A DNA stretch of 22,628 nucleotides. Source: a virus. Its lineage: Duplodnaviria; Heunggongvirae; Uroviricota; Caudoviricetes. The stretch lies in the IMG/VR virus record IMGVR_UViG_2861043448_000001; one strand, 5' to 3'. A model generated the notes under the pieces. That model worked only from the letters and a program-made list of their open reading frames with translations, ran no database searches and had not been told where the DNA came from. This document shows, one piece after another, positions 1,659-22,430 of this stretch. The translations under genes and the position numbers were made by a program. The stretch's first letter is position 1. Each line of letters starts with the position of its first letter.

Positions 1659-4130
1659 TTAAGAATCAGCCTGACTCGGGATCAGTTTTTGCCAGATAAC
1701 TGAAACGTATTTTGCCTGGTAACGGGCGTCATCAAGTGCATTATGGCGCTCACCTTCGAATTGAATAGCCGTTCTGGCATCGAAGTCTATGACTTTCCCC
1801 AGCTCAACGATTGTGCGTACATCGCGATCGTTGTAGTAACGCCACGGGCAGGGGATCCCCTGCCGTTCGTATGAACGGCGCAAAATCGTGTTGTCGAAGT
1901 TGGCTCCATTCCCCCAAACCTGAACAAAAAATTCACCGGAGTTTTCGTCGATAAATTCCCGCAATTGTAACAGTGCATCATCTAACGGGATTTCATCGGT
2001 CATAATGGCAGATTGCGCTTCGCGTGATTGCTTAAGCCACCATTTAATGGTGTCCCGATCAATGACTCCGCCAGCAGTTTCCAGATCGATAGTCTTACTA
2101 AATTCCGGTCCCATATCTCCGGTTTGCGGATCGAAAAATATTGCACCTATTGAGGTGATCGGGGCATCAGGATTTTTTCCCATGGTTTCAAGGTCGATCA
2201 TTAGATGGTCACACGTCCTGCTGGTGGATGTGATTTCGTGATGACCGTTCACCTTAATTGGGTGATCTGCCGTCTCGCCAGTTTCATTATCGCTATTGTG
2301 ATGCTGATTGCCGCCAGTGTTCTCCTTGTGTGGATGTTCAGCGCCTTCCATTTCCTCCGGATCATCTTCCTGAACTTCAACCTGATACTCTTCATCGAAT
2401 GTTTCTTGGTATGTTGCGTCGCCCATCACCGCGCCACAATCAGGGCAGTTGCCGCCGCCGGTCTGACCGCAGGCGGTGCAGACTTTTTCCACTTCCTGTT
2501 GCGCTACTGGTTCAGGCTGTTTCGTTTCTGGCTCGTTTTGTAACGCATTTGGACTGTTTTGTTCCGCTTTTTGGTAGTTCCGTTCCGATTCATGCTGGTT
2601 CTGGTTCACAGAATCGCGGGTCTGGATCCCCTTAACCCATTTCGGATCATTCGGGTCACTAATCCCTTCAACAAATTCACCACGTGATGCAGCAAGCAAC
2701 TTATCAGCGTCAGGCTGGCTGATATTGGCTGCCTGCATAATTTTGTTTACTTCGTCAGCGGTAACTTTTATCGGCTCTGGTTGTTCTGAATCTTCAGCGG
2801 TATCTACATTTTGCGGTAAGCCCGTGTATGTGCCATTTTTTCGGGCAAAATATTCTTCTTTTGTGATTTCAGTGGCGCCAGCAGCCAGTGCCTTATCCAG
2901 ACCAGAAAGTTTGTTTGCGCGACCGTATTTTTCTCCGTCCTTATCTGCGAAGAGGAAATAGAACGGCCCCTCACGCTCTACAGATGGTTCAGCTTCCGGC
3001 GCGGTTTCATTTTTTGGGATATCAGATACCTCAGTTTCCACTGCATCAGTTTGTGTTTCTGATGACTGGAGAACATCAACAGTGCCCAGGTCTGTTTCTT
3101 CATTCTCAAACACGCCCTTTGTCGTCAGGTATTCGCAGATATATTTGTTCAGTGCTACGGGATCTTTGTGAATGTCGATCGGACGCTCACGGACAAGGCC
3201 AAAAATAGTTTGGCGGTCGTAGCGAAGGGCATCAGGCTGTTTGCGCATTGATGCCGAGATACGCTTCCAGTCTTCGCGGTCGTTGTCGATAACTTCTTTT
3301 TTTGCCCAGCGATGGATGCTGCCGTCAATGTTTCCGGCATCCACATCACCAGGCCAGAGAGCGTAGGCCAGTTCGTCATCCAGTGTTTTCCATGTCTGCT
3401 TGTATTCGCGATGAATGGCAGCAATGACCGGGCTGATTTTTCCTGTTGAATTTTCAGTGTACTGTTGATTGGCTCTGGCGCGTGCGAGATCAACAACAGA
3501 CGTGTATTTTCCGGTTTCCTTGCGTTCACCTTCGCGACGTTTTTTCCAGATGCGCATCTCTGCCTGAATTTCGGGCCATTTAGCACCAGGAATACATTTA
3601 TGCTTAACCCACCCAATGGCGTGCAACTTAAGCTCCGGATACATGGCGTTAACTTCTGGCATTTTCATCAACGCTTCAACGATATGTCCGTCGAATGTTG
3701 CCATGTCTTCCTGCAACAATTCCTGTGCGCTAATAACCATATCAACGGTGATGTTTTCACATGTGTCGAACTTAACCATGACAGCGTTCTGTACTTCAGG
3801 GGCCAGCTTGTCAAAAGTGACGTTCATCGGATCGGATTCAGTCTCAACCGGGACAAAAGAAGCAGACTCCTCATCCCAGCGGTTTTCCTGCATATATTCA
3901 GCATCCCATGAATCGAGGGCAGGGCGGGGTATGCCAGGTTTATCCTCGCAGACAATAAATTTATAAGCGCAGTCCTGAGCAGCCGGATAATGTTCCAGGA
4001 ATTGCCAGTGAAATTTTGCTCGAGCACGGCGTTCGTCGCCAGCTTCAATGGCTGTGGCTACAGCCACAGCGCCTTCTTCCCTTGTTGCCAGTTCGTCAGG
4101 AATAGCGGCGCAAATAAAGACTTTACTCAT
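1659..4130 (-). CDS. large prophage exonuclease (exodeoxyribonuclease VIII-like) with C-terminal DEDD-type 3'-5' exonuclease domain
   Basis: 823-aa ORF. C-terminal about 180 aa carry DnaQ-like motifs (MIDLETMG ... HNALDDARY). Central acidic low-complexity linker and a C-x2-C-x7-C-x2-C zinc-ribbon-like cluster (CTACGQTGGGNCPDCG). A mid-region segment (DKLLAASRGEFVEGISDPNDPKWVKGIQTRD) seems to match my recollection of RecE, which I cannot verify. Confidence 0.75.
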   Translation of the reverse strand: MSKVFICAAIPDELATREEGAVAVATAIEAGDERRARAKFHWQFLEHYPAAQDCAYKFIVCEDKPGIPRPALDSWDAEYMQENRWDEESASFVPVETESDPMNVTFDKLAPEVQNAVMVKFDTCENITVDMVISAQELLQEDMATFDGHIVEALMKMPEVNAMYPELKLHAIGWVKHKCIPGAKWPEIQAEMRIWKKRREGERKETGKYTSVVDLARARANQQYTENSTGKISPVIAAIHREYKQTWKTLDDELAYALWPGDVDAGNIDGSIHRWAKKEVIDNDREDWKRISASMRKQPDALRYDRQTIFGLVRERPIDIHKDPVALNKYICEYLTTKGVFENEETDLGTVDVLQSSETQTDAVETEVSDIPKNETAPEAEPSVEREGPFYFLFADKDGEKYGRANKLSGLDKALAAGATEITKEEYFARKNGTYTGLPQNVDTAEDSEQPEPIKVTADEVNKIMQAANISQPDADKLLAASRGEFVEGISDPNDPKWVKGIQTRDSVNQNQHESERNYQKAEQNSPNALQNEPETKQPEPVAQQEVEKVCTACGQTGGGNCPDCGAVMGDATYQETFDEEYQVEVQEDDPEEMEGAEHPHKENTGGNQHHNSDNETGETADHPIKVNGHHEITSTSRTCDHLMIDLETMGKNPDAPITSIGAIFFDPQTGDMGPEFSKTIDLETAGGVIDRDTIKWWLKQSREAQSAIMTDEIPLDDALLQLREFIDENSGEFFVQVWGNGANFDNTILRRSYERQGIPCPWRYYNDRDVRTIVELGKVIDFDARTAIQFEGERHNALDDARYQAKYVSVIWQKLIPSQADS

Positions 4131-4743: not shown

Positions 4744-4926
4744 ATGATCGCCGGGTTAAATAAAGAATATGGCGATGTGGTGGAATCCGGACTGCTTTTT
4801 GCAGATCCTGCCGTTGTAGATCGTGAAACTGACGAACTTATAGAAAAAGCAATTGCTTTCAAGCTTGCGTATCGACAGCAATACCAACAAAAAGCTGGAT
4901 GGAATTATGAGTCTTCTTTTTGCTGA
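4744..4926 (+). CDS. hypothetical small protein (first rightward ORF)
   Basis: ORF in the track from TTG at 4705; first ATG at 4744 (MIAGLNKEYGDV...). Overlaps the start of the replication gene by about 20 nt. Weak SD; could be a cro/cII-position gene or spurious. Confidence 0.3.
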   Translation: MIAGLNKEYGDVVESGLLFADPAVVDRETDELIEKAIAFKLAYRQQYQQKAGWNYESSFC

Positions 4927-5872
4927 ACGCCCACTGGTTATAAACACGCAGCTGGCAATGAAAATTGGCTTAAACGAAGCCATTGTTTTGCAACAACTGC
5001 ACTACTGGTTGAGAGATACCAACTCCGGCATGGAATGTGATGGTGTTCGCTGGATTTATAACACAACGGAACAATGGCTGGAACAGTTCCCATTCTGGTC
5101 AGAGTCAACGTTAAAGCGCGCGTTTGCAAGTCTGAAAACGCTGGGGCTTTTGCGTTGTGAAAAGCTCAATAAATCAAAGCGCGATATGACCAATTTCTAC
5201 ACGATCAACTACGGGAGCGAGCTTTTAGATGGTGGCAAATTGAGCGAATCCATCGGTTTAAAATGCGCCGCTCCATCAGGTCAAAATGACACGATGGAAG
5301 AGGTCAAAATGAAACGCTCCATTGGTTCAAAACGACTCAATGTCATCGGGTCAAAATGGCCTGATGATCTTACAGAGAATACAACAGAGATTACTACAGA
5401 GAATAAAAAGACTTCTCGTCCGGAAGCTTCGCAACCGGACCCGCAGACGGTTGAACAGGATTTTTTAACCCGACACCCTGACGCGGTTGTGTTCAGTGCG
5501 AAAAAACGCCAGTGGGGCAGCCAGGAAGATTTGGCGTGTGCGCAGTGGATCTGGGGGCGAATCGTGAGTCTTTACGAGCAGGCCGCCAGCGATGATGGCG
5601 AGATTTCGCGACCGAAAGAACCCAACTGGACCGCATGGGCCAACGACGTGCGCACAATGCGGATGCTGGATGGCAGAACTCACAGACAAATTTGTGAAAT
5701 GTTTGGTCGGGTGCAGCGGGATCCATTCTGGGTAAAAAATATCATGAGTCCGTCAAAGCTTCGCGAAAAATGGGATGAACTGGTTATCCGCCTGGGGCGT
5801 TCGTCTGTACAGCGTTGTGTGAATCATATTTCTGAGCCGGATACCGAAATTCCGCCGGGCTTCAGGGGGTAA
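4907..5872 (+). CDS. phage replication initiation / replisome-organiser protein with DnaT-like C-terminal domain
   Basis: N-terminal HTH-like region (RPLVINTQLAMKIGLNEAIVLQQLHYWL...), linker with amino-acid repeats, C-terminal region (ACAQWIWGRIV...WTAWANDVRTMRMLDGRTHRQICEMFG...DPFWVKNIMSPSKLREKWDEL) resembling primosomal DnaT C-terminal domains. ATG at 4907 is preferred over the upstream TTG at 4853. Confidence 0.75.
   Translation: MSLLFAERPLVINTQLAMKIGLNEAIVLQQLHYWLRDTNSGMECDGVRWIYNTTEQWLEQFPFWSESTLKRAFASLKTLGLLRCEKLNKSKRDMTNFYTINYGSELLDGGKLSESIGLKCAAPSGQNDTMEEVKMKRSIGSKRLNVIGSKWPDDLTENTTEITTENKKTSRPEASQPDPQTVEQDFLTRHPDAVVFSAKKRQWGSQEDLACAQWIWGRIVSLYEQAASDDGEISRPKEPNWTAWANDVRTMRMLDGRTHRQICEMFGRVQRDPFWVKNIMSPSKLREKWDELVIRLGRSSVQRCVNHISEPDTEIPPGFRG
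5371..5406. repeat. three tandem 12-bp iteron-like repeats (NNACAGAGAWTA) in the replication-gene linker
   Basis: ttACAGAGAATA caACAGAGATTA ctACAGAGAATA, encoding TENTTEITTEN; position is analogous to lambda ori inside gene O. Confidence 0.3.
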
Positions 5873-5912
5873 GTGTTAATTTCTGGTCATGAGGTAATTT
5901 TCAGGAGGGCTT

Positions 5913-6335
5913 GTGGCAAAAGTTTTTACACAAGAAGAGCGGGAAAAAATTAAAGGGCAGGTTGTTGAACTCGTACGCCGGAGTGGGCGTGAGACGTTAC
6001 GGCAACTGGAAGTCAAGACAGGTGCGACAAGATATCTGATGAGCGTTCTCGCAAGAGAGCTGGTTGCCAGCGGCGATGTATACAACTCTGGTTACGGGTT
6101 ATTCCCGTTTGAACAGGCGCGTAAGGACTGGCAAAATGCCCGTAAAAAGCTCTCAAGGGCAAAGCTGAAGGAACCATCTGCGGTTGATCCGGACCTTATC
6201 TGGTCATTACCTGACGGAGAAATACGTCGTTACGACAGGCGTCATAATATGATTTGTACTGAGTGTCGTAAAAGCGAAGTTATGCAGCGCATATTGTCGT
6301 TTTATCAGGGGGATGTCCGGTATTTATTGAAGTGA
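5913..6335 (+). CDS. hypothetical protein (140 aa)
   Basis: GTG start 5 nt after a strong SD (CAGGAGGG); no recognisable domain from sequence alone. Confidence 0.6.
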   Translation: MAKVFTQEEREKIKGQVVELVRRSGRETLRQLEVKTGATRYLMSVLARELVASGDVYNSGYGLFPFEQARKDWQNARKKLSRAKLKEPSAVDPDLIWSLPDGEIRRYDRRHNMICTECRKSEVMQRILSFYQGDVRYLLK

Positions 6336-6403
6336 CGAGATTAAAGTGCATTAGTTCAGATGCAAATTGACATTTTGTGGCACAGGGTAGAGCTAGCGTG
6401 GTT

Positions 6404-6427
6404 GTCCGCTTTGTGCCAAGAGCGGAC
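6404..6427. repeat. 24-bp hairpin element, copy 1 (GTCCGCTTTGTGCCAAGAGCGGAC)
   Basis: Near-identical to the copy at 7619-7642; 9-bp stem, 6-nt loop; lies about 40 bp outside the 3' end of the GIY-YIG gene. Confidence 0.5.
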
Positions 6428-6464
6428 TTTGCAAAATGGGGGTTATTTCAATCAAAACGTAACG

Positions 6465-7409
6465 TCACAACCAGCCGACGCTCTCTCGCCATTTATAATT
6501 AGTAACTTTATCATTTTCGCTTATTTTTTTAGATATAGAGCGCGGCTCTCTTCCTAGATACTCAGATATTTCTATCGGGGACAAATCAAAATCAACAAGC
6601 ATGACTCTAAGTTTTTCCATTTCCTTTAAAGTCCAAGGCTTGCCATAATTTTCATAAAGAGATACCTTATGCTCCCTGATAGTTCGCTTTCTCTGAGTTT
6701 CACTTTCCCTCTGAAAAATCTCGCTTTTAAATTGTGAACGGAACTCTTTACAGAAGTTGTTATCAGTTTTTTTGTTATATAGATTGCTAAAAATAAGCTG
6801 GGATGCCGGGTCTAAATCAGGTGTGTTAATAATGAAAACTTTGACCTTTTCCATATAGGGATATTCAATTTTACCCAATATGCTTAATTGCTTTATATTA
6901 AAAAAACCTCTCAAATCAAAAGATTTAATGAGCTTTGATTGGATTACACTTTCAATCCTGCTTGCATTTAAATAACAGTACTTTGCCATTGGAAGGGCCC
7001 ATACTACCAGTTGAGGAATATATTTTTCTAATGCAATGCTCTGCCAATCAGTATCAAAGGTTTGGCTTTTTGCTAGCATGTTTTTCGGCAAATCAGAATA
7101 CATTGTGGTAGATGCCCATATCTTATAATCATTCGCCAAGGCTTGATAGTATTTTGTGTGGTTATGAATTTTATAAGCTGACATGAAGCGATAAACGTCT
7201 TCGTCGTGACCAGCGTCGTAAATTGTTCGATTTCCTCTAAGATAACCGTCGTAATGTTCGGTTATCCTTCTACCTACATTACAACTTACCCCAACGTAAA
7301 CCACACGACTGAAAAGTCCTTTATGGACAATAAGATAAACTCCGCTACAGCCAGATTTCCTGGCCTCTGATAGAGAACCTAAAAATCTCCATTCCATAAT
7401 TAAATCCAT
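6465..7409 (-). CDS. GIY-YIG nuclease-domain protein (314 aa) with uncharacterised C-terminal region
   Basis: N-terminus CSGVYLIVHKGLFSRVVYVGVSCNVGRRITEHY fits GIY-x(about 12)-YVG ... R ... E spacing of GIY-YIG nucleases. The gene is markedly AT-rich compared with flanking phage genes. Confidence 0.75.
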   Translation of the reverse strand: MDLIMEWRFLGSLSEARKSGCSGVYLIVHKGLFSRVVYVGVSCNVGRRITEHYDGYLRGNRTIYDAGHDEDVYRFMSAYKIHNHTKYYQALANDYKIWASTTMYSDLPKNMLAKSQTFDTDWQSIALEKYIPQLVVWALPMAKYCYLNASRIESVIQSKLIKSFDLRGFFNIKQLSILGKIEYPYMEKVKVFIINTPDLDPASQLIFSNLYNKKTDNNFCKEFRSQFKSEIFQRESETQRKRTIREHKVSLYENYGKPWTLKEMEKLRVMLVDFDLSPIEISEYLGREPRSISKKISENDKVTNYKWRESVGWL

Positions 7410-7579
7410 AATTATTGCTACTGTTTTTGTTTATCATTATTTTCGTGAAACTTCAACAATTTTATCCAAAAGCTAAGGGCAAAGACTTATATAATTATAC
7501 TTGTCATCGTTAGCGATTATATAGAGTAGTGGCGCTGACCTGCTCCCTGGTGATTCACACAGAATGCTGTTAGTAATGT

Positions 7580-7642
7580 CCGTTCCTCGCTCTCAGCGGA
7601 CCTTCAGCTCAGTGATATCGTCCGCTCTGTGCAAAGAGCGGA
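7580..7642. repeat. two tandem hairpin elements (GTCCGTTCCTCGCTCTCAGCGGAC and GTCCGCTCTGTGCAAAGAGCGGAC)
   Basis: Second unit is a perfect 9-bp stem with 6-nt loop and matches the copy at 6404-6427; located in the 547-bp spacer between the GIY-YIG gene and the 449-aa gene. A further CCGCTCT-containing imperfect dyad occurs near 7760-7790. Confidence 0.45.
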
Positions 7643-7956
7643 CGTTGGTATGCAAGAGCCCTCCAAAAGTTGATGGTTGGTTTGCAGGGGGGCTTAAAGA
7701 AACTGCACTTATCAAGTTGAAGTTCTGTATTCAGCGAAATCGTAGCACTCTGACGATAAGTAACTCCGGTACTCCGCTCTTCGATGAAGAACCAGAGTAA
7801 TCCCCCCGAAAAACCAGCGCATCAAAATTGGATCTTCAGCGGTAGCTTATCGGCTATCGGAAGTACAGGTGTGGATTCGTGGTGAATTGCTTTGATAATA
7901 AACGATTAATACGGAAAAACGCATTAATCATTTATTAGCTTTTAGTAAACCACAAT

Positions 7957-9306
7957 TTATTCCGTTTTACATATCATAGTAGTCGATTGGAGAATATAGT
8001 TTCTGGGAATGTACTCTTCAAAGTGTTCGTCCTTTTTAAATACATGAACTACATTTGGGAATAATTGATAGTCAACAGGGTGTATAGCGTTTGGATTATG
8101 GTACATGTACATGGCTGTACACCATGGTTCTTGATAGTTAGGGTCACTTACATCGGCTGAAAATGGATGTGGGGCTGCATCCTGATCAGTTTTAACACCA
8201 CTGACGTACACTTTGAATCCACTCGCCTCTACACCTGCAAGAATTCCCATCCGGTTAAACTTAGGTATGGTTGCTTGAGTAGTGAGTAAAACGGCAGAAA
8301 CATAATTATTTTGTTCTGAGCCAAAAAAGTTCGACTTGATACTTCTATTTTCATCTGTATGTCTTTCAATAGAAATGCCTGACTCAATATCAATCCCGTA
8401 CAAATAGCTATGCAAGGCTTCGCTTGAGAAGGCCATGGACATTCTTTTTGAATAATCCTGCATTGCTATGACAAATGGTTTGTTCTTTGTATGGTTGAGT
8501 TCCCAGTAATGAACTTTCTCTGGCTCAGGGCAATGCCGGACTTTTTTTAATAAACTTCTTGCAAACTTAAAAGGCATGACATTTAGAACATGTTTTCTTA
8601 ATTCATCCATCTGTTCATCGTTAATGACTTTTCTTTCAAGAGGGGCTTCTGCTTCAGCAATGCTTACAGCCTCTACAGCAATTTCCACTCCAAATTTAGA
8701 TAGCAGAAAATCTGGTTGATTGTATTCTCTATTCATTTCAAAGTCGAGTTCATAAAATACAGCGTTCAAATATAATTCAAATAACCTTGAATTAAATGCA
8801 TCACTTTGAAAATCCCTTATAAATATTCCATCAGGATCTTTGAACCAGTATGCAAGTTCCTCAAGAACAATATATGCAGGGAAATGAAGAGGGTCTTCGA
8901 GGAGCATTTTTATATAAACATTCCTTTTTTTCGCTGGGACCTTACTCAAGAATAATGAAAAAGGTTTGGTTGATTCATCGCCTTGCATGAATGTACCATT
9001 TTGGTGCTGCGCCAGCATCTTTGGTATGTCATCGTTCAAATTATTAAGCAAGACATCCATTGAATCAAATGAAGCCAAGACGTTTATTGCTCTGAATTTT
9101 TTATCTAAATCCCGACCTAAGACTATTGCGTTAAAATCTTTATCAATATTGCATATGATTATTGTGGATAACAATGTTATCCCATTCCCCTCATATTTAA
9201 ACCAGCGTATCTCCTCAGAAAATGTCTTAAGGTAAGGTGAGCGACCGTAAAAATAAATATCAAATTGTTCTTTGCTGATCTCACTGAAGTGTAATCCTGC
9301 GTTCAT
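7957..9306 (-). CDS. hypothetical protein (449 aa), no recognisable domain
   Basis: Long intact ORF with AAGGA SD 7-11 nt upstream of the ATG; AT-rich; same strand as the adjacent GIY-YIG gene. Confidence 0.7.
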   Translation of the reverse strand: MNAGLHFSEISKEQFDIYFYGRSPYLKTFSEEIRWFKYEGNGITLLSTIIICNIDKDFNAIVLGRDLDKKFRAINVLASFDSMDVLLNNLNDDIPKMLAQHQNGTFMQGDESTKPFSLFLSKVPAKKRNVYIKMLLEDPLHFPAYIVLEELAYWFKDPDGIFIRDFQSDAFNSRLFELYLNAVFYELDFEMNREYNQPDFLLSKFGVEIAVEAVSIAEAEAPLERKVINDEQMDELRKHVLNVMPFKFARSLLKKVRHCPEPEKVHYWELNHTKNKPFVIAMQDYSKRMSMAFSSEALHSYLYGIDIESGISIERHTDENRSIKSNFFGSEQNNYVSAVLLTTQATIPKFNRMGILAGVEASGFKVYVSGVKTDQDAAPHPFSADVSDPNYQEPWCTAMYMYHNPNAIHPVDYQLFPNVVHVFKKDEHFEEYIPRNYILQSTTMICKTE

Positions 9307-9428
9307 ACCAATTCCTTTTCAATGAATAATTGGCCTTTAGGAGTGATTCCCTTTGTCTTTAATTCAGTTCTAACTAGTTCTTTAATCCAATAGCCTAAGC
9401 TCATCATGCAGTTGGATCATAAGACAAC

Positions 9429-9457
9429 GCCCTATAGTGCTCGTGATACTATAGGGC
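9429..9457. promoter_or_regulatory. perfect 10-bp inverted repeat with 9-bp spacer (GCCCTATAGT-gctcgtgat-ACTATAGGGC)
   Basis: Seen directly in the divergent region between the 449-aa gene and the recombinase gene; geometry resembles an operator or recombinase core site. Confidence 0.35.
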
Positions 9458-9590
9458 ATCTGACCACACTGTTAACTGGAGTAACGACTATGGCAGGAAT
9501 ACAGCATAACCAAACTCACCCCAAACTTACATAGCGCTTTCTGGCCGTGAGCATAACAAGGTCCACTCCTCGCTCATAAGGGACAACCAT

Positions 9591-9623
9591 ACTCAAATCT
9601 CCCACATTGCAGGAGATTTGAGT
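9591..9623 (+). promoter_or_regulatory. perfect 12-bp stem-loop sequestering the recombinase ribosome-binding site
   Basis: ACTCAAATCTCC-cacattgca-GGAGATTTGAGT; the AGGAG SD (9611-9615) lies in the loop/3' arm junction and the ATG (9624) follows immediately. Confidence 0.45.
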
Positions 9624-10226
9624 ATGAACACGTCACCGTGGAACAAAGACCGTATCATAGGCCAAAAAAGACCACTTCAGATATCTCATATCTGGGGTAT
9701 CCGAATCCGACTTGAACTGGAAGGTAAAACTCGCGATTTAGCTCTGTTCAACATGGCCCTGGATAGTAAGCTTCGAGGCTGTGATCTGGTCAAACTCAAA
9801 GTATCTGATGTTGCATATGGTGGCTCTGTTTCAAGCAGAGCAACGGTGTTGCAACAGAAAACCGGTAGCCCTGTTCAATTTGAGATAACCAAAGGGACAA
9901 GAGAAGCTGTTGCTGCATTGATACAGCTTAGCAATTTGCACAGTAAAGACTTCTTGTTTCGGTCTAGGGTCGGAACTAACCAGCACATTTCAACCCGGCA
10001 ATACAACCGAATCTTTCATGGGGGGGTAGAAAAGCTTGGTCTCGAAGATTCGCTTTACAGCACACATTCCATGAGAAGAACAAAACCTTACCTGATCTAC
10101 AAGAAAACCAAGAATCTCCGGGTGATCCAACTTCTGTTGGGTCATAAGAAACTGGAAAGCACAGTCCGTTATCTGGGCATTGAAGTCGATGATGCGTTAG
10201 AGATTTCTGAATCGATTGAAGTCTAA
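9624..10226 (+). CDS. small tyrosine recombinase, catalytic domain only (FimB/FimE-sized, 200 aa)
   Basis: Catalytic signature ...LRGCD (Arg-I) ... HSMRRT ... LLGH ... TVRYL (Tyr nucleophile). No N-terminal arm-binding domain. The track ORF begins at TTG 9618; ATG 9624 with AGGAG 8 nt upstream is preferred. Confidence 0.8.
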   Translation: MNTSPWNKDRIIGQKRPLQISHIWGIRIRLELEGKTRDLALFNMALDSKLRGCDLVKLKVSDVAYGGSVSSRATVLQQKTGSPVQFEITKGTREAVAALIQLSNLHSKDFLFRSRVGTNQHISTRQYNRIFHGGVEKLGLEDSLYSTHSMRRTKPYLIYKKTKNLRVIQLLLGHKKLESTVRYLGIEVDDALEISESIEV

Positions 10227-10585
10227 GGTTGTCAGGGCTGCAACAGCAGCCCTGTGCCATAAGCGGAAGTATTTAACAACTATCAGTGTTGTTCAACAGA
10301 TAAAGGGGCACTTGATTTTTTCTGTTCTCAGGAAATGATAAAAGCGCGTCGGTTCAAGCCTGCTTAACGGGAGTTTGTTAATCCTGTTGCCGTGACGTTT
10401 TGACACCATTATGATGGGGAGACACTTAATGTATGAAGGTTCCGCCACTTATACCTGTCCAACAACTGCCTCGGATGTTTCTTTGTATGAATAAGTGGTA
10501 ATGAGTAGTGAATCGCTAACAGTCACCCGAACAATCGGTGCCTGCAATTAATTCTATATTCTAAACGAGGGGGAGATTATTACAC

Positions 10586-11566
10586 ATGAAATTTAAGGAC
10601 AAGAACCTTAAGGCTCTCGCGGAATGTATCATAGGAGATAATAAGGCATTTCTGTATCGTTCAAGCAGTCACATCACTGAATTTTTCCAGGACTGCGGCA
10701 TGGATGTTACTCATGACGGATCCACTCGGTGGAAATGGACGGCCCAGAGGCTTGAAGAACTTCTTTATGAGCCACAGTCAAAGCCACATACTTTGCCGGA
10801 AAGGTTTGTTCATGTGCTCAGAACTTTAATGTTAAAAGAAGATGCAATGGATGACGATCCAGGAAGATTAAAGGCGCTTGAAGAACTGAACAAGCCTTTG
10901 ATGCGGGAAGGCTATGAGGCATTCTATGGTGACGATCGCCTTTTGTATATACGCCATACCGATACCAAAACGGTTTCAGTCAGTAATAACCCTCATCGGC
11001 CCTTAACGCCTCACGAAGTAGAATGCAGAAGGTTACTGACCGCGTTTCTTGATACCTGCTCAGAAGATGAGTTAATAGAAGATATTCTCCTTCCTTTATT
11101 CCGGCAACTTGGTTTTCACCGGATAACAGCAGTGGGACATAAAGATAAAGCGCTGGAATACGGGAAAGACATCTGGATGAAGTTCACACTGCCAACTCAG
11201 CATGTTCTTTATTTCGGCATTCAGGCAAAAAAAGGTAAGTTGGATGCGTCCGGTGCCAGCAAATCTACGAATTCAAACGTGGCAGAAATCTTCAACCAGG
11301 TACTGATGATGCTTGGCCATGAAATATTTGACCCAGAAACAAATAGAAAGGTGCTGGTAGATCATGCCTTTATCGTTGCTGGCGGAGAAATTACTAAACA
11401 GGCGAGGAACTGGCTGGGCGGGAAACTTGATGCCAGCAAAAGAAGCCAGATAATATTTATGGACCGGGAAGACATTCTTAATTTATATACTGTAAGTAAT
11501 GTACCTCTGCCAACAGGTGCTCTCATCTCTGATGATGCCGTTAAGAACGATGATATTCCTTTCTAA
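10586..11566 (+). CDS. protein with C-terminal Mrr-like PD-(D/E)xK nuclease motif and unknown N-terminal domain (326 aa)
   Basis: Strong SD (GAGGGGGAG). C-terminal half ...HRITAVGHKDKALEYGKDIWMKF...LYFGIQAKKG... resembles the Mrr catalytic core (D ... Q-x-K). Confidence 0.7.
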   Translation: MKFKDKNLKALAECIIGDNKAFLYRSSSHITEFFQDCGMDVTHDGSTRWKWTAQRLEELLYEPQSKPHTLPERFVHVLRTLMLKEDAMDDDPGRLKALEELNKPLMREGYEAFYGDDRLLYIRHTDTKTVSVSNNPHRPLTPHEVECRRLLTAFLDTCSEDELIEDILLPLFRQLGFHRITAVGHKDKALEYGKDIWMKFTLPTQHVLYFGIQAKKGKLDASGASKSTNSNVAEIFNQVLMMLGHEIFDPETNRKVLVDHAFIVAGGEITKQARNWLGGKLDASKRSQIIFMDREDILNLYTVSNVPLPTGALISDDAVKNDDIPF

Positions 11567-11993
11567 TCAGAAGTACGTCTTTTTCTGAAAGAATACGTGA
11601 TAGGTAGCCACACCACACCTTTAGTGACCCCTTAATCTGGTAATATAACAGCCCGTATGAATGTCCGCGGCATCGCGGGCTGAAATTTATTAAAAATACT
11701 TATTCATCAAGCTGGAGTAGTTTGCCGAGTAACTGTAAACGCCCAACTTAACCGGACCATTCACTTTTAGATTGCTACCAGCAAACCAACTTCCGTTTCT
11801 CGCTCAAAGCGGACTAGAAGGTTAGCTTGCGTCGGACTTGGCGTATTTAAAGAAGTGCTGGTGGTAACTGGTTGTTGTGTTCCATTTCTACAAAACAAAA
11901 TCACAGAAACTATACCCAATAGTTATATTGAATCAATGATGAGACAGCCTCATATTTATCAGAACTGGTGTACGTCCAATACAGGAGGTTGTC

Positions 11994-12083: not shown

Positions 12084-12237
12084 TTTTATATTGGCGAGGT
12101 GACGGGAGTTAAGTAGAATTGCTGCGGGTGCTTGAGGCTATCTGCCTCAGGCATGAACACCAAAGGCAGATAGAGAAAAGCCCCAGTTAACATTACGCGT
12201 CCTGCAAGACGTTTAACATTAATCTGAGGCTCAATCT

Positions 12238-12450
12238 ATGAACGGCAAATCTAGGTTAGCCTCTTACGTGCCGAAAGGCAAGGAGAAGCAGGCTATGAAG
12301 CAGCAAAAGGCGATGTTAATCGCCCTGATCGTCATCTGTTTAACCGTCATAATGACGGCACTGGTAACGAGGAAAGACCTCTGCGAGGTACGAATCCGAA
12401 CCGGCCAGACGGAGGTCGCTGTCTTCACAGCTTACGAACCTGAGGAGTAA
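12238..12450 (+). CDS. hok: Hok/Gef family type I toxin with in-frame Mok leader (hok proper = 12295..12450)
   Basis: MKQQKAMLIALIVICLTVIMTALVTRKDLCEVRIRTGQTEVAVFTAYEPEE is a near-match to Hok/Gef toxins; in-frame upstream extension from ATG 12238 as in chromosomal mok; candidate promoter TTGGCG-17-TAGAAT about 12097-12125. Confidence 0.85.
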   Translation: MNGKSRLASYVPKGKEKQAMKQQKAMLIALIVICLTVIMTALVTRKDLCEVRIRTGQTEVAVFTAYEPEE

Positions 12451-13263: not shown

Positions 13264-14313
13264 GTGCGGGTATTACTTCGACCTGTTCTGGTACCGGAAC
13301 TCGGGCTGGTGGTCGTTAAGCCGGGCCGTGAATCCATGCCGGTATTCCACAATACCCGGGTACTGGTGGAGCCGGAACCGAAAAGCATGCGTAATCTGCC
13401 GTCCGGGGTCGTTCCTGCCGTTCGCCAGCCGCTGGTGGAAGACAAAACATTGCTGCCGTTTTTCAGTAACGCACGGGTAATTCGTGCTGCTGGTGGTGCT
13501 GGTGCATTGTCTGACTGGCTGTTGCGCCATATTAAATCCTGCCAGTGGCCACACGGCGATTATCATCACAGCGAAACCGTCATTCACCGTTATGGTACCG
13601 GCGCAATGGTGTTGTGCTGGCACTGCGACAACCAGCTGCGTGACCAGACATCCGAATCACTCGAGCAACTTGCTCATCAAAACCTGTCAGCATGGATGAT
13701 TGACGTCATCGGTCACGCAATAAGCGGTACGCAGGAGCGTGAATTATCTTTGGCTGAATTATCCTGGTGGGCGGTCCGCAATCAGGTGGCGGACGCGCTA
13801 CCGGAAGCGGTATTACGTGGTTCGCTGGGGTTGCGTGCGGAAAAAATCCGCTCAATGTACCGTGAAAGCGACATCGTACCGGGAGAGCAGACCGCCAACA
13901 GCATACTGAAACAGCGCACAAAAAATCTTGCGCCGCTGCCTCACGCCCACCAGCAACAGAACCCACCACAGGAAAAGACGGTGGTCAGCATTGCCGTTGA
14001 TCCTGAGTCTCCGGAATCTTTCATGAAACGACCTAAACGTCGCCGCTGGGTTAACGAGAAATACACACGCTGGGTGAAGACACAGCCGTGTGCGTGTTGT
14101 GGTAAGCCAGCCGACGATCCCCATCACCTGATTGGTCATGGTCAGGGCGGAATGGGGACAAAATCTCACGATATTTTCACGCTACCGCTGTGTCGGGAGC
14201 ATCACAACGAGCTTCATGCGGATCCTCTGGCGTTCGAAGAAAAGCATGGTTCTCAGGTTGATTTAATTTTTCGTTTTCTTGATCACGCCTTTGCAACTGG
14301 CGTGCTTGGGTAA
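13264..14313 (+). CDS. nin-region protein with C-terminal HNH-like Cys/His motif (349 aa, YdfU-like)
   Basis: GTG start with GGAGG SD 5 nt upstream; C-terminus CACCGK...HHLIGHGQGG...CREHHNELH resembles HNH nuclease motifs; size matches K-12 YdfU as recalled. Confidence 0.7.
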   Translation: MRVLLRPVLVPELGLVVVKPGRESMPVFHNTRVLVEPEPKSMRNLPSGVVPAVRQPLVEDKTLLPFFSNARVIRAAGGAGALSDWLLRHIKSCQWPHGDYHHSETVIHRYGTGAMVLCWHCDNQLRDQTSESLEQLAHQNLSAWMIDVIGHAISGTQERELSLAELSWWAVRNQVADALPEAVLRGSLGLRAEKIRSMYRESDIVPGEQTANSILKQRTKNLAPLPHAHQQQNPPQEKTVVSIAVDPESPESFMKRPKRRRWVNEKYTRWVKTQPCACCGKPADDPHHLIGHGQGGMGTKSHDIFTLPLCREHHNELHADPLAFEEKHGSQVDLIFRFLDHAFATGVLG

Positions 14314-15661: not shown

Positions 15662-15737
15662 GGCCCTTTAGCTCAGTGGTGAGAGCGAGCGACTCATAAT
15701 CGACAGGTCGCTGGGTCAAATCCAGCAAGGGCCACCA
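15662..15737 (+). tRNA. tRNA with CAU anticodon (Ile2/Met type, ileX-like)
   Basis: Cloverleaf read by eye: acceptor GGCCCTT/AAGGGCC, anticodon loop CUCAUAA, T-arm GCUGG-GUCAAAU-CCAGC, 3' ACCA. Close to E. coli ileX as recalled. Confidence 0.85.
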
Positions 15738-15738
15738 A

Positions 15739-15815
15739 CCGTCACCAGTTCATCAGGAAAGAGCGTCAACCCTTTAAGTTGAGTGTGCGAGGTTCGAGTC
15801 CCCGGTGGCGGTCCA
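15739..15815 (+). tRNA. atypical tRNA-like gene (anticodon loop CCUUUAA; identity uncertain, possibly degenerate)
   Basis: 77 nt with acceptor, D, anticodon and T arms, but C at positions 8 and 33 and an A-C mismatch in the T-stem. Confidence 0.4.
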
Positions 15816-15817
15816 GT

Positions 15818-15893
<76 letters not shown>

Positions 15894-15896
15894 TAT

Positions 15897-15971
<75 letters not shown>

Positions 15972-20655: not shown

Positions 20656-20838
20656 TATCCTTCAAGCCCTGAAGGAGGCTGTTCCTGGTACGTTCAGACT
20701 GTTGTTGAGCTGGAAATCGCAACGGAGGAAGAAACTTCGTTGCTGGAAGTCTGGAAGAAGTATCGGGTGTTGCTGAACCGTGTTAATACAACAACTGCAC
20801 CGGATATTGAATGGCCAGTAGCACCTATAGGGTAAATT
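20656..20838 (+). pseudogene. tail fibre assembly (tfa) 3' fragment, no start codon
   Basis: Frame directly after the fibre stop encodes ...[37 protein letters not shown], resembling Tfa C-termini as recalled. Confidence 0.5.
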
Positions 20839-22184: not shown

Positions 22185-22289
22185 AATTTAACCTTAACAT
22201 CGTTGCTGGCGGCATGGAAGAAATATCGGGTCTTGCTGATGTCGTGTTGGCACTTCCTTAGTGCGGTTATCGAATGGCCAGCTGTACCT
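22185..22289 (+). pseudogene. second, more diverged tfa 3' remnant
   Basis: Encodes ...[31 protein letters not shown]; DNA is similar to 20740-20838 at both ends; no start codon. Confidence 0.35.
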
Positions 22290-22430
22290 GTGGGGTAAAA
22301 ACTTTATATGGGTGCTATTTTTATAATAGCTGGTAAAAACTGGCCGAACTGAAATTCACTGTTGATAAAAAAGATGTGTTTGAGTGTATGTCATTGTTTT
22401 CTTAACGGAATCCACTAGAATGCAGCGAAT

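Follow-up and report, generated by a model that had tools for sequence, protein, structure and literature searches.

The stretch of DNA considered here, 22,628 nucleotides from the IMG/VR virus record IMGVR_UViG_2861043448_000001 ("the window" denotes this stretch at its full length), is a lambdoid Escherichia coli prophage that carries an array of gene cassettes bounded by short, hairpin-like elements. These elements are probably the core sites of a site-specific cassette exchange system, and a 200-amino-acid (aa) tyrosine recombinase encoded within the array would be its most likely catalyst, a reading to which we assign a probability of about 0.6.

Six related 24-bp sites are present in the window. 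They have 7-bp inverted arms (GTCCGCT/AGCGGAC) in common and are of two kinds, A and B, told apart by a 6-nt centre that is asymmetric and invariant in both, TGTGCC in A sites and TCGCTC in B sites. Type A follows the pattern GTCCGCT-N-TGTGCC-NNN-AGCGGAC (sites A1, A2, and A3') and type B the pattern GTCCGYT-YY-TCGCTC-NN-AGCGGAC (sites B1, B2, and B3). The arm pattern GTCCGCT-N10-AGCGGAC with up to two mismatches matches four times in the window, where 0.03 matches are expected from 100 shuffles. B2 was picked up by a repeat finder, and A3', which is half-canonical, was recognized by reading the sequence 3' of the recombinase gene. The array thus reads A1[GIY-YIG-like]B1, 18 nt, A2[PD-T7-1]B2, [200-aa tyrosine recombinase], A3'[326-aa open reading frame (ORF)]B3. 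The original prediction, made from the sequence of the window, had placed dyads at 6404-6427, 7619-7642, and 7580-7603 and had described them as bracketing the GIY-YIG gene. The first position is right and the other two shift slightly, to 7620-7643 and 7578-7601; the GIY-YIG gene is indeed bracketed, but so is every cassette of the three-cassette array, of which two sites (B2 and A3') had been missed.

All features of the array are given on the plus strand unless stated otherwise. The conserved lambdoid backbone that follows the DUF977 gene ends with the left socket flank (6379-6403), in which GGCACAGGG, an inverted copy of the A core, is located. Site A1 (6404-6427; GTCCGCT-T-TGTGCC-AAG-AGCGGAC = GTCCGCTTTGTGCCAAGAGCGGAC) has its left half in the backbone and its right half in cassette 1 (6428-7577, minus strand), which consists of a gene for a 314-aa GIY-YIG-like nuclease (6465-7409) and its upstream region; the product carries the RefSeq name GIY-YIG nuclease family protein and has no notable match in Pfam or PADLOC. 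Site B1 (7578-7601; GTCCGTT-CC-TCGCTC-TC-AGCGGAC = GTCCGTTCCTCGCTCTCAGCGGAC) is separated by an 18-nt mini-connector (7602-7619; CTTCAGCTCAGTGATATC) from site A2 (7620-7643; GTCCGCT-C-TGTGCA-AAG-AGCGGAC = GTCCGCTCTGTGCAAAGAGCGGAC), whose left half belongs to the connector and whose right half belongs to cassette 2 (7644-9560, minus strand). The 449-aa product of cassette 2 (gene 7957-9306) is the anti-phage defence protein PD-T7-1 (PADLOC, E 7e-157). Site B2 (9561-9584; GTCCACT-CC-TCGCTC-AT-AAGGGAC) is a hybrid with its left half in the PD-T7-1 cassette and its right half in the recombinase module. The recombinase connector (9585-10244) comprises a leader hairpin, the recombinase gene (ATG at 9624, stop at 10226), and a 3' hairpin, and leads to the recombinase-proximal, non-palindromic site A3' (10245-10268; AGCAGCC-C-TGTGCC-ATA-AGCGGAA). 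Cassette 3 (10269-11790) contains a 326-aa ORF (10586-11566) whose product has no match in Pfam, NCBIfam, or PADLOC. In the last site, B3 (11791-11814; TTCCGTT-TC-TCGCTC-AA-AGCGGAC), the right half is lambdoid backbone, and the conserved backbone restarts in the right socket flank (11815-11850; TAGAAGGTTAGCTTGCGTCGGAC...) ahead of hok/sok.

Folding bears out the predicted 9-bp stem and 6-nt loop for the near-identical A1 and A2 (-13.8 and -16.4 kcal/mol, z -4.0 and -5.3), whereas the B copies have stems of 7 pairs only, including a G.U pair (-7.0), and B2 is hardly a hairpin (-3.1). Positions 10 and 15 of the sites are complementary in 1-14% of cases, as compared with 42-50% in shuffles, and the centre is deliberately asymmetric as well as conserved. 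Pairing at the inner stem positions 8/17 and 9/16 is scarcely more frequent than in shuffles, and no significant inner-stem covariation was found. Core sites of tyrosine recombinases consist as a standard of inverted arms around an asymmetric crossover region, an anatomy that the geometry of the A and B sites would fit.

No site of the six overlaps a long ORF. As a promoter/terminator scan calls none of them and the 12 nt 3' of each site are not T-rich and lack a U tract, they do not qualify as intrinsic terminators, in agreement with the expectation that the dyads are non-coding, without an adjacent U-tract, and not standard terminators. In an Rfam scan of the window, only sok and three tRNA matches reach the threshold and the hairpins are unmatched, nor does ARAGORN find a tRNA at the hairpins. 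Two imperfect dyads had been predicted farther to the right. The one near 11795 is a true member of the family, B3, whereas near 7760 only a left, B-like part is found, its arms are absent, and it is not counted as a site. The sequence concerned (7766-7790; CTCCGCTCTTCG...) is similar to a B site in its left part but has no right arm, lies inside the PD-T7-1 cassette, and is kept within PD-T7-1 cassettes of other phages; it could be a relic of an older junction.

Two further features adjoin the sites. Mini-connectors between B and A are always 16-19 nt long in the window and seven other loci (consensus CTTYAGCTCAGTKAYMTC), a spacing that sets the B and A centres about 41 bp, or some four helical turns, apart. 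In lambdoid and P2 left flanks, TGGCACAG(A/G)G occurs 17-20 nt 5' of the A site (6379-6387 in the window; about 2265 in a P2-like locus) and is the A core CTGTGCCA in inverted form. With a presence in just 5 of 27 socket contexts, this upstream GGCACAG motif was rejected as an accessory site or pseudoknot partner for sockets in general.

Sockets, cassettes, and the point of exchange

For first comparisons, window positions 5900-8000 were compared with other sequences by megablast, and the matches begin or end exactly at the hairpins; strain SCEC020001, one of those that carry this prophage, matches the 2.1-kb query at 100%. Phage mEp460_ev081 possesses the DUF977 gene, one A site, and the PD-T7-1 cassette, but in it cassette 1, B1, the spacer, and a second A site are absent, so that it differs from the window by exactly one unit of cassette, connector, and site. 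This is the comparison of strains with and without the GIY-YIG cassette that the original prediction had proposed, and the breakpoint lies at the hairpin, a single A site remaining. Between the tail genes G and FI of the Yersinia P2-like phage vB_YpM_46, the same PD-T7-1 cassette is found from the A site on. In the same G-FI hotspot, the P2-like phage 899 shows the arrangement A[gene]B-18 nt-A[gene]B, and in phage P2 itself, fun(Z) lies between an A site (P2 15335-15358) and a degenerate B site. In strain 14EC017, the GIY-YIG cassette is found after a NACHT gene, behind a different B-spacer-A junction, and has kept its own A right half (AAGAGCGGAC followed by tttgcaaaat).

A scan of viral contigs with the A pattern yielded at least 120 loci; the figures for A sites that follow apply among the matches listed. 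A sites follow two conserved backbone flanks, the lambdoid and the P2-like one, and about 25 other types of flank. In dozens of lambdoid contigs, the left flank is identical or near-identical up to the A site and the sequence 3' of the site differs, and the sequences to the right of 71 unique A sites fall into 57 clusters. B sites mirror this arrangement, the backbone flank on their right being conserved and the sequence on their left variable, and in lambdoid contigs the right flank follows about 40 different B sites. Between A and B, 36 distinct cassettes of 0.5-5.8 kb were found; in 24 of them the longest ORF runs on the plus strand and in the other 12 on the minus strand. Besides PD-T7-1, three of nine sampled cargos match PADLOC families. 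Fixed sockets for such cassettes exist in lambdoid prophages (after the DUF977 gene), in P2-like phages (G-FI hotspot), in a P1-like plasmid, in elements resembling integrative conjugative elements (ICEs), as well as in E. coli defence islands. A GIY-YIG homing endonuclease targeting the hairpins was considered as well and rejected, because the same sites flank dozens of unrelated cargos.

The B-spacer-A module is present in 702 of 5426 E. coli genomes, with a median of one and a maximum of three places per genome, at which no feature is annotated. The B-18 nt-A form is also seen in P2-like phage 899 and in defence islands, and the copies inspected in detail belong to a P2-like phage, defence islands, and a prophage contig. 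The motif marks cassette boundaries, one of the possibilities that the original prediction had raised, and with 0-3 junction modules per genome it is not a genome-wide REP (repetitive extragenic palindromic)-like repeat in E. coli. A search of 2435 E. coli records with the joined left and right flanks revealed no truly empty lambdoid socket. The lone near-empty candidate (E. coli strain A20, 555-828) consists of an A site, a decayed cassette of about 225 nt, and a B site whose left arm is degenerate.

Genome contigs were scanned with a pattern for the arms only, and the results on alphaproteobacterial hairpins again apply among the matches listed. Both Alphaproteobacteria (Pseudolabrys, Bradyrhizobium, Brevundimonas, and Sphingomonas) and Xanthomonadales commonly have same-arm hairpins with the centres TGGGTC, CGGCCA, or GGGGGT. 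These often form tandem arrays with spacers of 21-22 nt, similar to REP or bacterial interspersed mosaic elements (BIMEs), and some of them match the A site of E. coli phages over all 24 nt.

The two halves of a site have different histories. For positions 15-17 of the A sites, the entropy of 2.64 bits is reduced to 0.10 bits when the cassette is given and to 1.56 bits when the left flank is given, and in all five cassettes found behind more than one left context, position 8 tracks the left flank and positions 15-17 track the cassette. For B sites, knowledge of the cassette lowers the entropy of the left arm from 3.62 to 0.12 bits and that of positions 8-9 from 2.60 to 0.07 bits; six cassette-side clusters occur with several right contexts, and wherever the cassette halves are identical, a different partner brings a different right half. 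Each end of the PD-T7-1 cassette is seen with three partners, namely lambdoid (two loci), P2 (two loci), and connector left halves at its A half and the right halves AA-AGCGGAC (lambdoid), AA-AGCAGAC (P2), and AT-AAGGGAC (recombinase module) at its B half. That the sequence left of the centre tracks one neighbor and the sequence right of it the other argues for an exchange inside the 6-nt centre, within which strands would presumably be cut and rejoined.

The 200-aa recombinase and its module

The protein encoded between B2 and A3' matches Pfam Phage_integrase (E 2e-17, residues 37-186) and belongs to the tyrosine recombinase superfamily, as the catalytic R, K, HxxR, H, and Y residues are present. 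The motifs LRGCDL, QKTG, HSMRR, LLGH, and RYLG are invariant in 30 homologues and align to the active-site motifs of XerD; the tyrosine of RYLG is Tyr183 of the 200-aa protein. Judged by these intact catalytic residues, the recombinase looks active. An N-terminal SAM-like domain is not matched by Pfam models. The protein was rejected as an integron integrase (17.5 and 17.2 bits with NCBIfam models whose cut-offs are 435 and 265), as XerC or XerD (44.7 bits for a XerC cut-off of 335 and 27.5 bits for a XerD cut-off of 329.6), and as a FimB/FimE-type invertase (27.4 and 19.2 bits for cut-offs of 222 and 221). Along the arrays, sites of the same kind are repeated directly, unlike the inverted repeats on which FimB/FimE-type invertases act.

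Close homologues of about 200 aa number more than 8000, and identities of 77-95% across many gammaproteobacterial genera would fit a recently spreading mobile enzyme. The family as a whole forms 526 clusters at 50% identity (E <= 1e-30). The recombinase module is encoded in 903 of 5426 complete E. coli genomes (17%) and on 754 plasmids. The order socket-A[cassette]B-int-A'[cassette]B-socket, in which int stands for the recombinase gene, recurs in lambdoid and P2-like prophages, in an IncY P1-like plasmid, in ICE-like contigs by traF, in a Providencia island, and in E. coli defence islands with reverse transcriptase and dynamin-like cargos; the gene sits inside the arrays and not at one end. 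In the ICE-like contigs, which have traF-traH-traG and rumAB-like genes, an arsenic-resistance cluster precedes the recombinase (region around 6001-8450), and the DNA from A' to the B site before traF differs from contig to contig, its contents being mer genes, dfr, qac plus a metallo-beta-lactamase-fold gene, and a class-1-like integron integrase. One array contains a fragment of a divergent second recombinase (50% identity, residues 100-191; about 3875-4096) some 1.3 kb downstream of the intact gene.

When viral contigs were searched with the 200-aa protein, 68 loci were obtained, and in 21 of 21 mapped loci the recombinase gene occupies the same position between sites of the family. A recognizable B site lies about 60 nt 5' of the ATG in 17 of the 21, and an A' site about 20 nt past the stop codon likewise in 17; loci without one or the other have truncated genes, contig ends, or degenerate half-sites. 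In full-length close relatives, the module consists of a variable left arm, YY-TCGCTC-AT-AAGGGAC, the leader, the gene, a short hairpin, CTGTGCC, and a variable arm, after which a new cassette begins. When 14 distinct junctions upstream and 13 downstream are compared, the module is conserved at about 100%, and the sequence past the two centres is random. Upstream, the right half of the B site and the leader are constant in 14 loci, all with different upstream flanks. Downstream, conservation remains at about 100% as far as CTGTGCC(A) and is random beyond the arm. Because conservation stops at both centres, the recombinase module is a connector that extends from a B centre to an A centre. Together with breakpoints exactly in the sites and the single-A footprint, this embedding of the recombinase gene speaks for the suggestion that the hairpins are recombination sites marking cassette borders, which they probably are.

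The A' site is located 20-28 nt past the stop codon and has 13 different cassettes attached to it, and the B site bounds the gene upstream as well. A' has only CTGTGCC and one arm in common with a canonical A site, and homologous recombination is therefore an unlikely route for the acquisition of 13 different cassettes. In the window, the hairpin GGGCTGC-aaca-GCAGCCC 3' of the recombinase gene runs to 10252 and so overlaps A3'. Directly before the ATG, a 12-bp leader hairpin (9591-9602 / 9612-9623; ACTCAAATCTCC ... GGAGATTTGAGT) covers the GGAG ribosome-binding site. It is retained in all close relatives, and its conservation suggests tight translational control of the recombinase. In more distant relatives, at 55-66% identity, the upstream site is of the TGGGTC type and the downstream one of the CGGCCA type, same-arm hairpins occur nearby, and one divergent recombinase gene is directly followed by four tandem same-arm hairpins.

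Proposed exchange and its alternatives

In the exchange that we propose, a cassette would extend from an A centre to a B centre, and a connector would fill the interval between a B centre and the A centre that follows it. Connectors might be an 18-nt spacer, the recombinase module or, topologically, the entire backbone of a phage, plasmid, or island; where the phage genome is circular, spacer, module, and backbone hold an equivalent topological position. Strands would be exchanged within the centre, A with A and B with B only, as A is not expected to recombine with B because their centres differ. By a swap route, one A and one B crossover between two replicons would exchange a cassette, and by an array route, a circle of cassette and connector would enter a resident A or B site and give rise to tandem arrays. 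For the window, a circle made up of the GIY-YIG cassette, B1, and the 18-nt connector would most likely have been inserted at the A site of an mEp460-like prophage that already carried PD-T7-1. The 200-aa enzyme (9624-10226), a tyrosine recombinase reduced to its catalytic domain, would act in cis here and in trans on sites of other elements in the same cell. A logic of swaps only would fit the absence of an empty lambdoid socket among the records searched and the report that defence hotspots are essentially never empty (PMC13586616).

Several observations weigh against this proposal. The link between recombinase and sites is one of association. The AlphaFold model of the recombinase is poor (predicted local distance difference test, pLDDT, of 50) and lends no structural support; it was too poor for a fold search. 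The recombinase-proximal half-sites (AAGGGAC and AGCAGCC) are non-canonical. As a universal neighbor of the sites the enzyme was rejected, since a recombinase lies within the fetched flanks of just 3 of 120 A-site viral loci, and most sockets would therefore need the enzyme in trans or another mechanism. The model does not account for the origin of the 16-19-nt mini-connectors. Finally, independent exchange events are few, about six at A and eight at B, which limits the analysis, and the linkage of positions 8 and 15-17 to the flanks could stem in part from few founding events rather than from many independent crossovers.

One alternative, which we consider unlikely though worth weighing, is that the sites are short linkers conserved for some other reason, for example the insulation of transcripts, and that their 24-bp identity serves homologous recombination (RecA, Red, RecET, or Bet/Exo), the recombinase being a passenger. 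The phage of the window has an 823-aa ORF (1659-4130) at the position of recombination genes, the small recombinase is not near most sockets, and homology of the backbone flanks alone would permit swaps within one phage family; for the hotspot borders of SXT/R391 ICEs, Bet/Exo has been proposed (Wozniak et al., PMC2791158). However, unrelated backbones have only 7+6+7 nt in common and A' only about 7 nt and one arm, yet 13 cassettes have been joined to the latter. Every informative junction puts the exchange in the 6-nt centre and not across the arms, and a mere patch of homology does not need a conserved, asymmetric centre. As to linkers, no other function of the hairpins is apparent, given the missing U tract, the missing Rfam match, and cargo in both orientations.

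Less probable still, at perhaps one chance in ten, would be the recognition of folded, single-stranded hairpins by another enzyme, such as a host factor, a HUH/RAYT-type nuclease, or another recombinase, in the style of REP or IS200/IS605 elements, in which case the 200-aa recombinase would merely have colonized the sites. Canonical A sites are strong hairpins, same-arm hairpins are abundant and often in tandem in Alphaproteobacteria and Xanthomonadales, and 120 such loci of 8 kb contain no gene for a relative of the recombinase. In contrast, B and recombinase-proximal sites form weak hairpins or none and are exchange points all the same, and at the inner stem, 8/17 and 9/16 pair barely above shuffles. 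No HUH or transposase gene is associated with the loci inspected, and distant relatives of the recombinase do adjoin same-arm hairpins. The original prediction had also offered operators of a dimeric regulator and RNA processing or stability elements, whose position at mosaic borders would be incidental; dyad symmetry, intergenic position, and the stability of A1 and A2 as RNA agree with them, but both are very improbable and unsupported. The sites do not depend on what the cargo is and border dozens of unrelated cargos, oriented either way, in unrelated elements; each half is inherited with a different neighbor, and there is neither a terminator signature nor an Rfam family.

If site-specific exchange at these sites is real, it would explain the movement of cargo among phages, plasmids, ICEs, and islands. 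Surveys have found that defence systems turn over very fast in the hotspots of phages and satellites and that the same systems are present in unrelated elements (PMC13586616, PMC9122126). The surveys leave the mechanism of exchange open; homologous recombination, they note, 'would require flanking homologous genes', and no transposons are present (PMC13586616, PMC9122126). Hotspot borders and cassette limits would become predictable from sequence, a new route to defence genes, and a compact natural recombinase with two orthogonal 24-bp sites would be available for genome engineering. More tentatively, and at somewhat less than even odds, the system might be an unrecognized integron-like platform with its own family of recombinases of about 200 aa, heterospecific pairs of 24-bp sites that let cassettes be exchanged without being lost, and standard sockets; such a platform would be the missing means for anti-phage defence genes to move from hotspot to hotspot of unrelated mobile elements, and the REP-like arrays of Alphaproteobacteria and Xanthomonadales would be sites of it too.

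Phage context and known systems

The remainder of the window is organized as follows. An integrase ORF (20-1315) and the 823-aa ORF mentioned above, both from the ORF list, are followed by an ORF for a 339-aa, O-like replication protein (4853-5872). Inside the latter, four tandem 23-nt repeats (CATCAGGTCAAAATGACACGATG and variants; 5274-5366) look like the iterons of a lambda-type replication origin. The DUF977 gene (5913-6335) precedes the hotspot, and immediately to the right of the hotspot a toxin-antitoxin locus of the hok/sok type is located, with the sok RNA at 12126-12300 (Rfam, 111.7 bits). Farther downstream are a DUF968 gene (13264-14313) and four tRNA genes (Met-CAT, Lys-TTT, Thr-TGT, and Gly-TCC; 15662-15971, ARAGORN) that precede a 720-aa ORF. 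Near the right end of the window, direct repeats at 20733-20836 and 22196-22299 (44 nt at 84% and 36 nt at 81% identity, offset 1463 nt) suggest a duplicated or paralogous segment.

Part of the system has been described before. A review credits Nilsson, Karlsson and Haggard-Ljungquist (Mol Biol Evol 2004) with the observation that P2 fun is flanked by inverted repeats enabling site-specific recombination. In the TO region of P2 (G-FI), A and B sites flank fun(Z) in P2 and cassettes in phages 899 and vB_YpM_46, and the window sites are, going by that one sentence of the review on which the identification rests, the same elements as the published P2 repeats, which border the foreign genes between G and FI and occur in bacterial genomes as well. 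In the literature searched, in which the 2004 P2 paper is known to us second-hand, we found no description of two kinds of sites, of a link to the 200-aa recombinase, or of lambdoid, P1-like, ICE-like, or island sockets. The hotspot papers of 2022 and 2026 make no mention of hairpins, palindromes, or inverted repeats and treat the exchange mechanism as unresolved, and a full-text search for the site sequences gave unrelated primers only. What appears to be new, then, are the two heterospecific centres, the dedicated small recombinase, and the sockets across unrelated elements, whereas the P2 hotspot repeats are known.

The hotspots of SXT/R391 ICEs have precise, invariant borders between backbone and variable DNA (PMC2791158), and similarly, in the ICE-like contigs the traF-proximal border is a B site and the variable DNA begins at A'. 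Both our sites and REP/BIME elements are short, GC-rich palindromes, and the alphaproteobacterial same-arm hairpins occur, like the latter, in tandem clusters at many loci. E. coli REP/BIME elements, however, are intergenic, spread over the whole chromosome, and present in hundreds of copies per genome, in contrast to the maximum of three B-spacer-A modules per E. coli genome, whose copies inspected in detail lie in hotspots of mobile elements. Recombinase-mediated cassette exchange with heterospecific lox or FRT sites is an engineered counterpart, in which sites have common arms and different spacers and like recombines with like, and therefore a cassette is swapped and not lost. That system is a laboratory design, whereas the present one would be natural, the incompatibility of A and B being deduced from their centres.

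The analogy with integrons, which the original prediction had raised by noting that attC sites are hairpins too, is useful up to a point. In both cases, a tyrosine recombinase gene lies beside a non-palindromic site (attI there, and here A', a possible primary site), arrays of short cassettes are split by palindromic sites, cargo is rich in defence functions, and many clusters of sites are without an integrase nearby, as in clusters of attC sites lacking integron-integrases (CALIN). IntI proteins, however, have about 320-340 aa and an IntI-specific additional domain, and attC sites are imperfect palindromes of about 57-141 nt whose structure but not sequence is conserved and which contain R''/L''-L'/R' boxes and a GTTRRRY core. 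The sites of the window were rejected as attC, for they have 24 nt, invariant arms and centre, an exchange inside TGTGCC or TCGCTC, and no GTT triplet as exchange point. The system also differs from integrons in that its short, sequence-conserved sites are of two heterospecific kinds, that cargo is found in both orientations, and that it sits at fixed sockets in phages, plasmids, ICE-like elements, and islands, and its 200-aa enzyme fails the integron-integrase models. It is thus not an integron, although among known systems it is closest to integrons in logic while failing their defining features.

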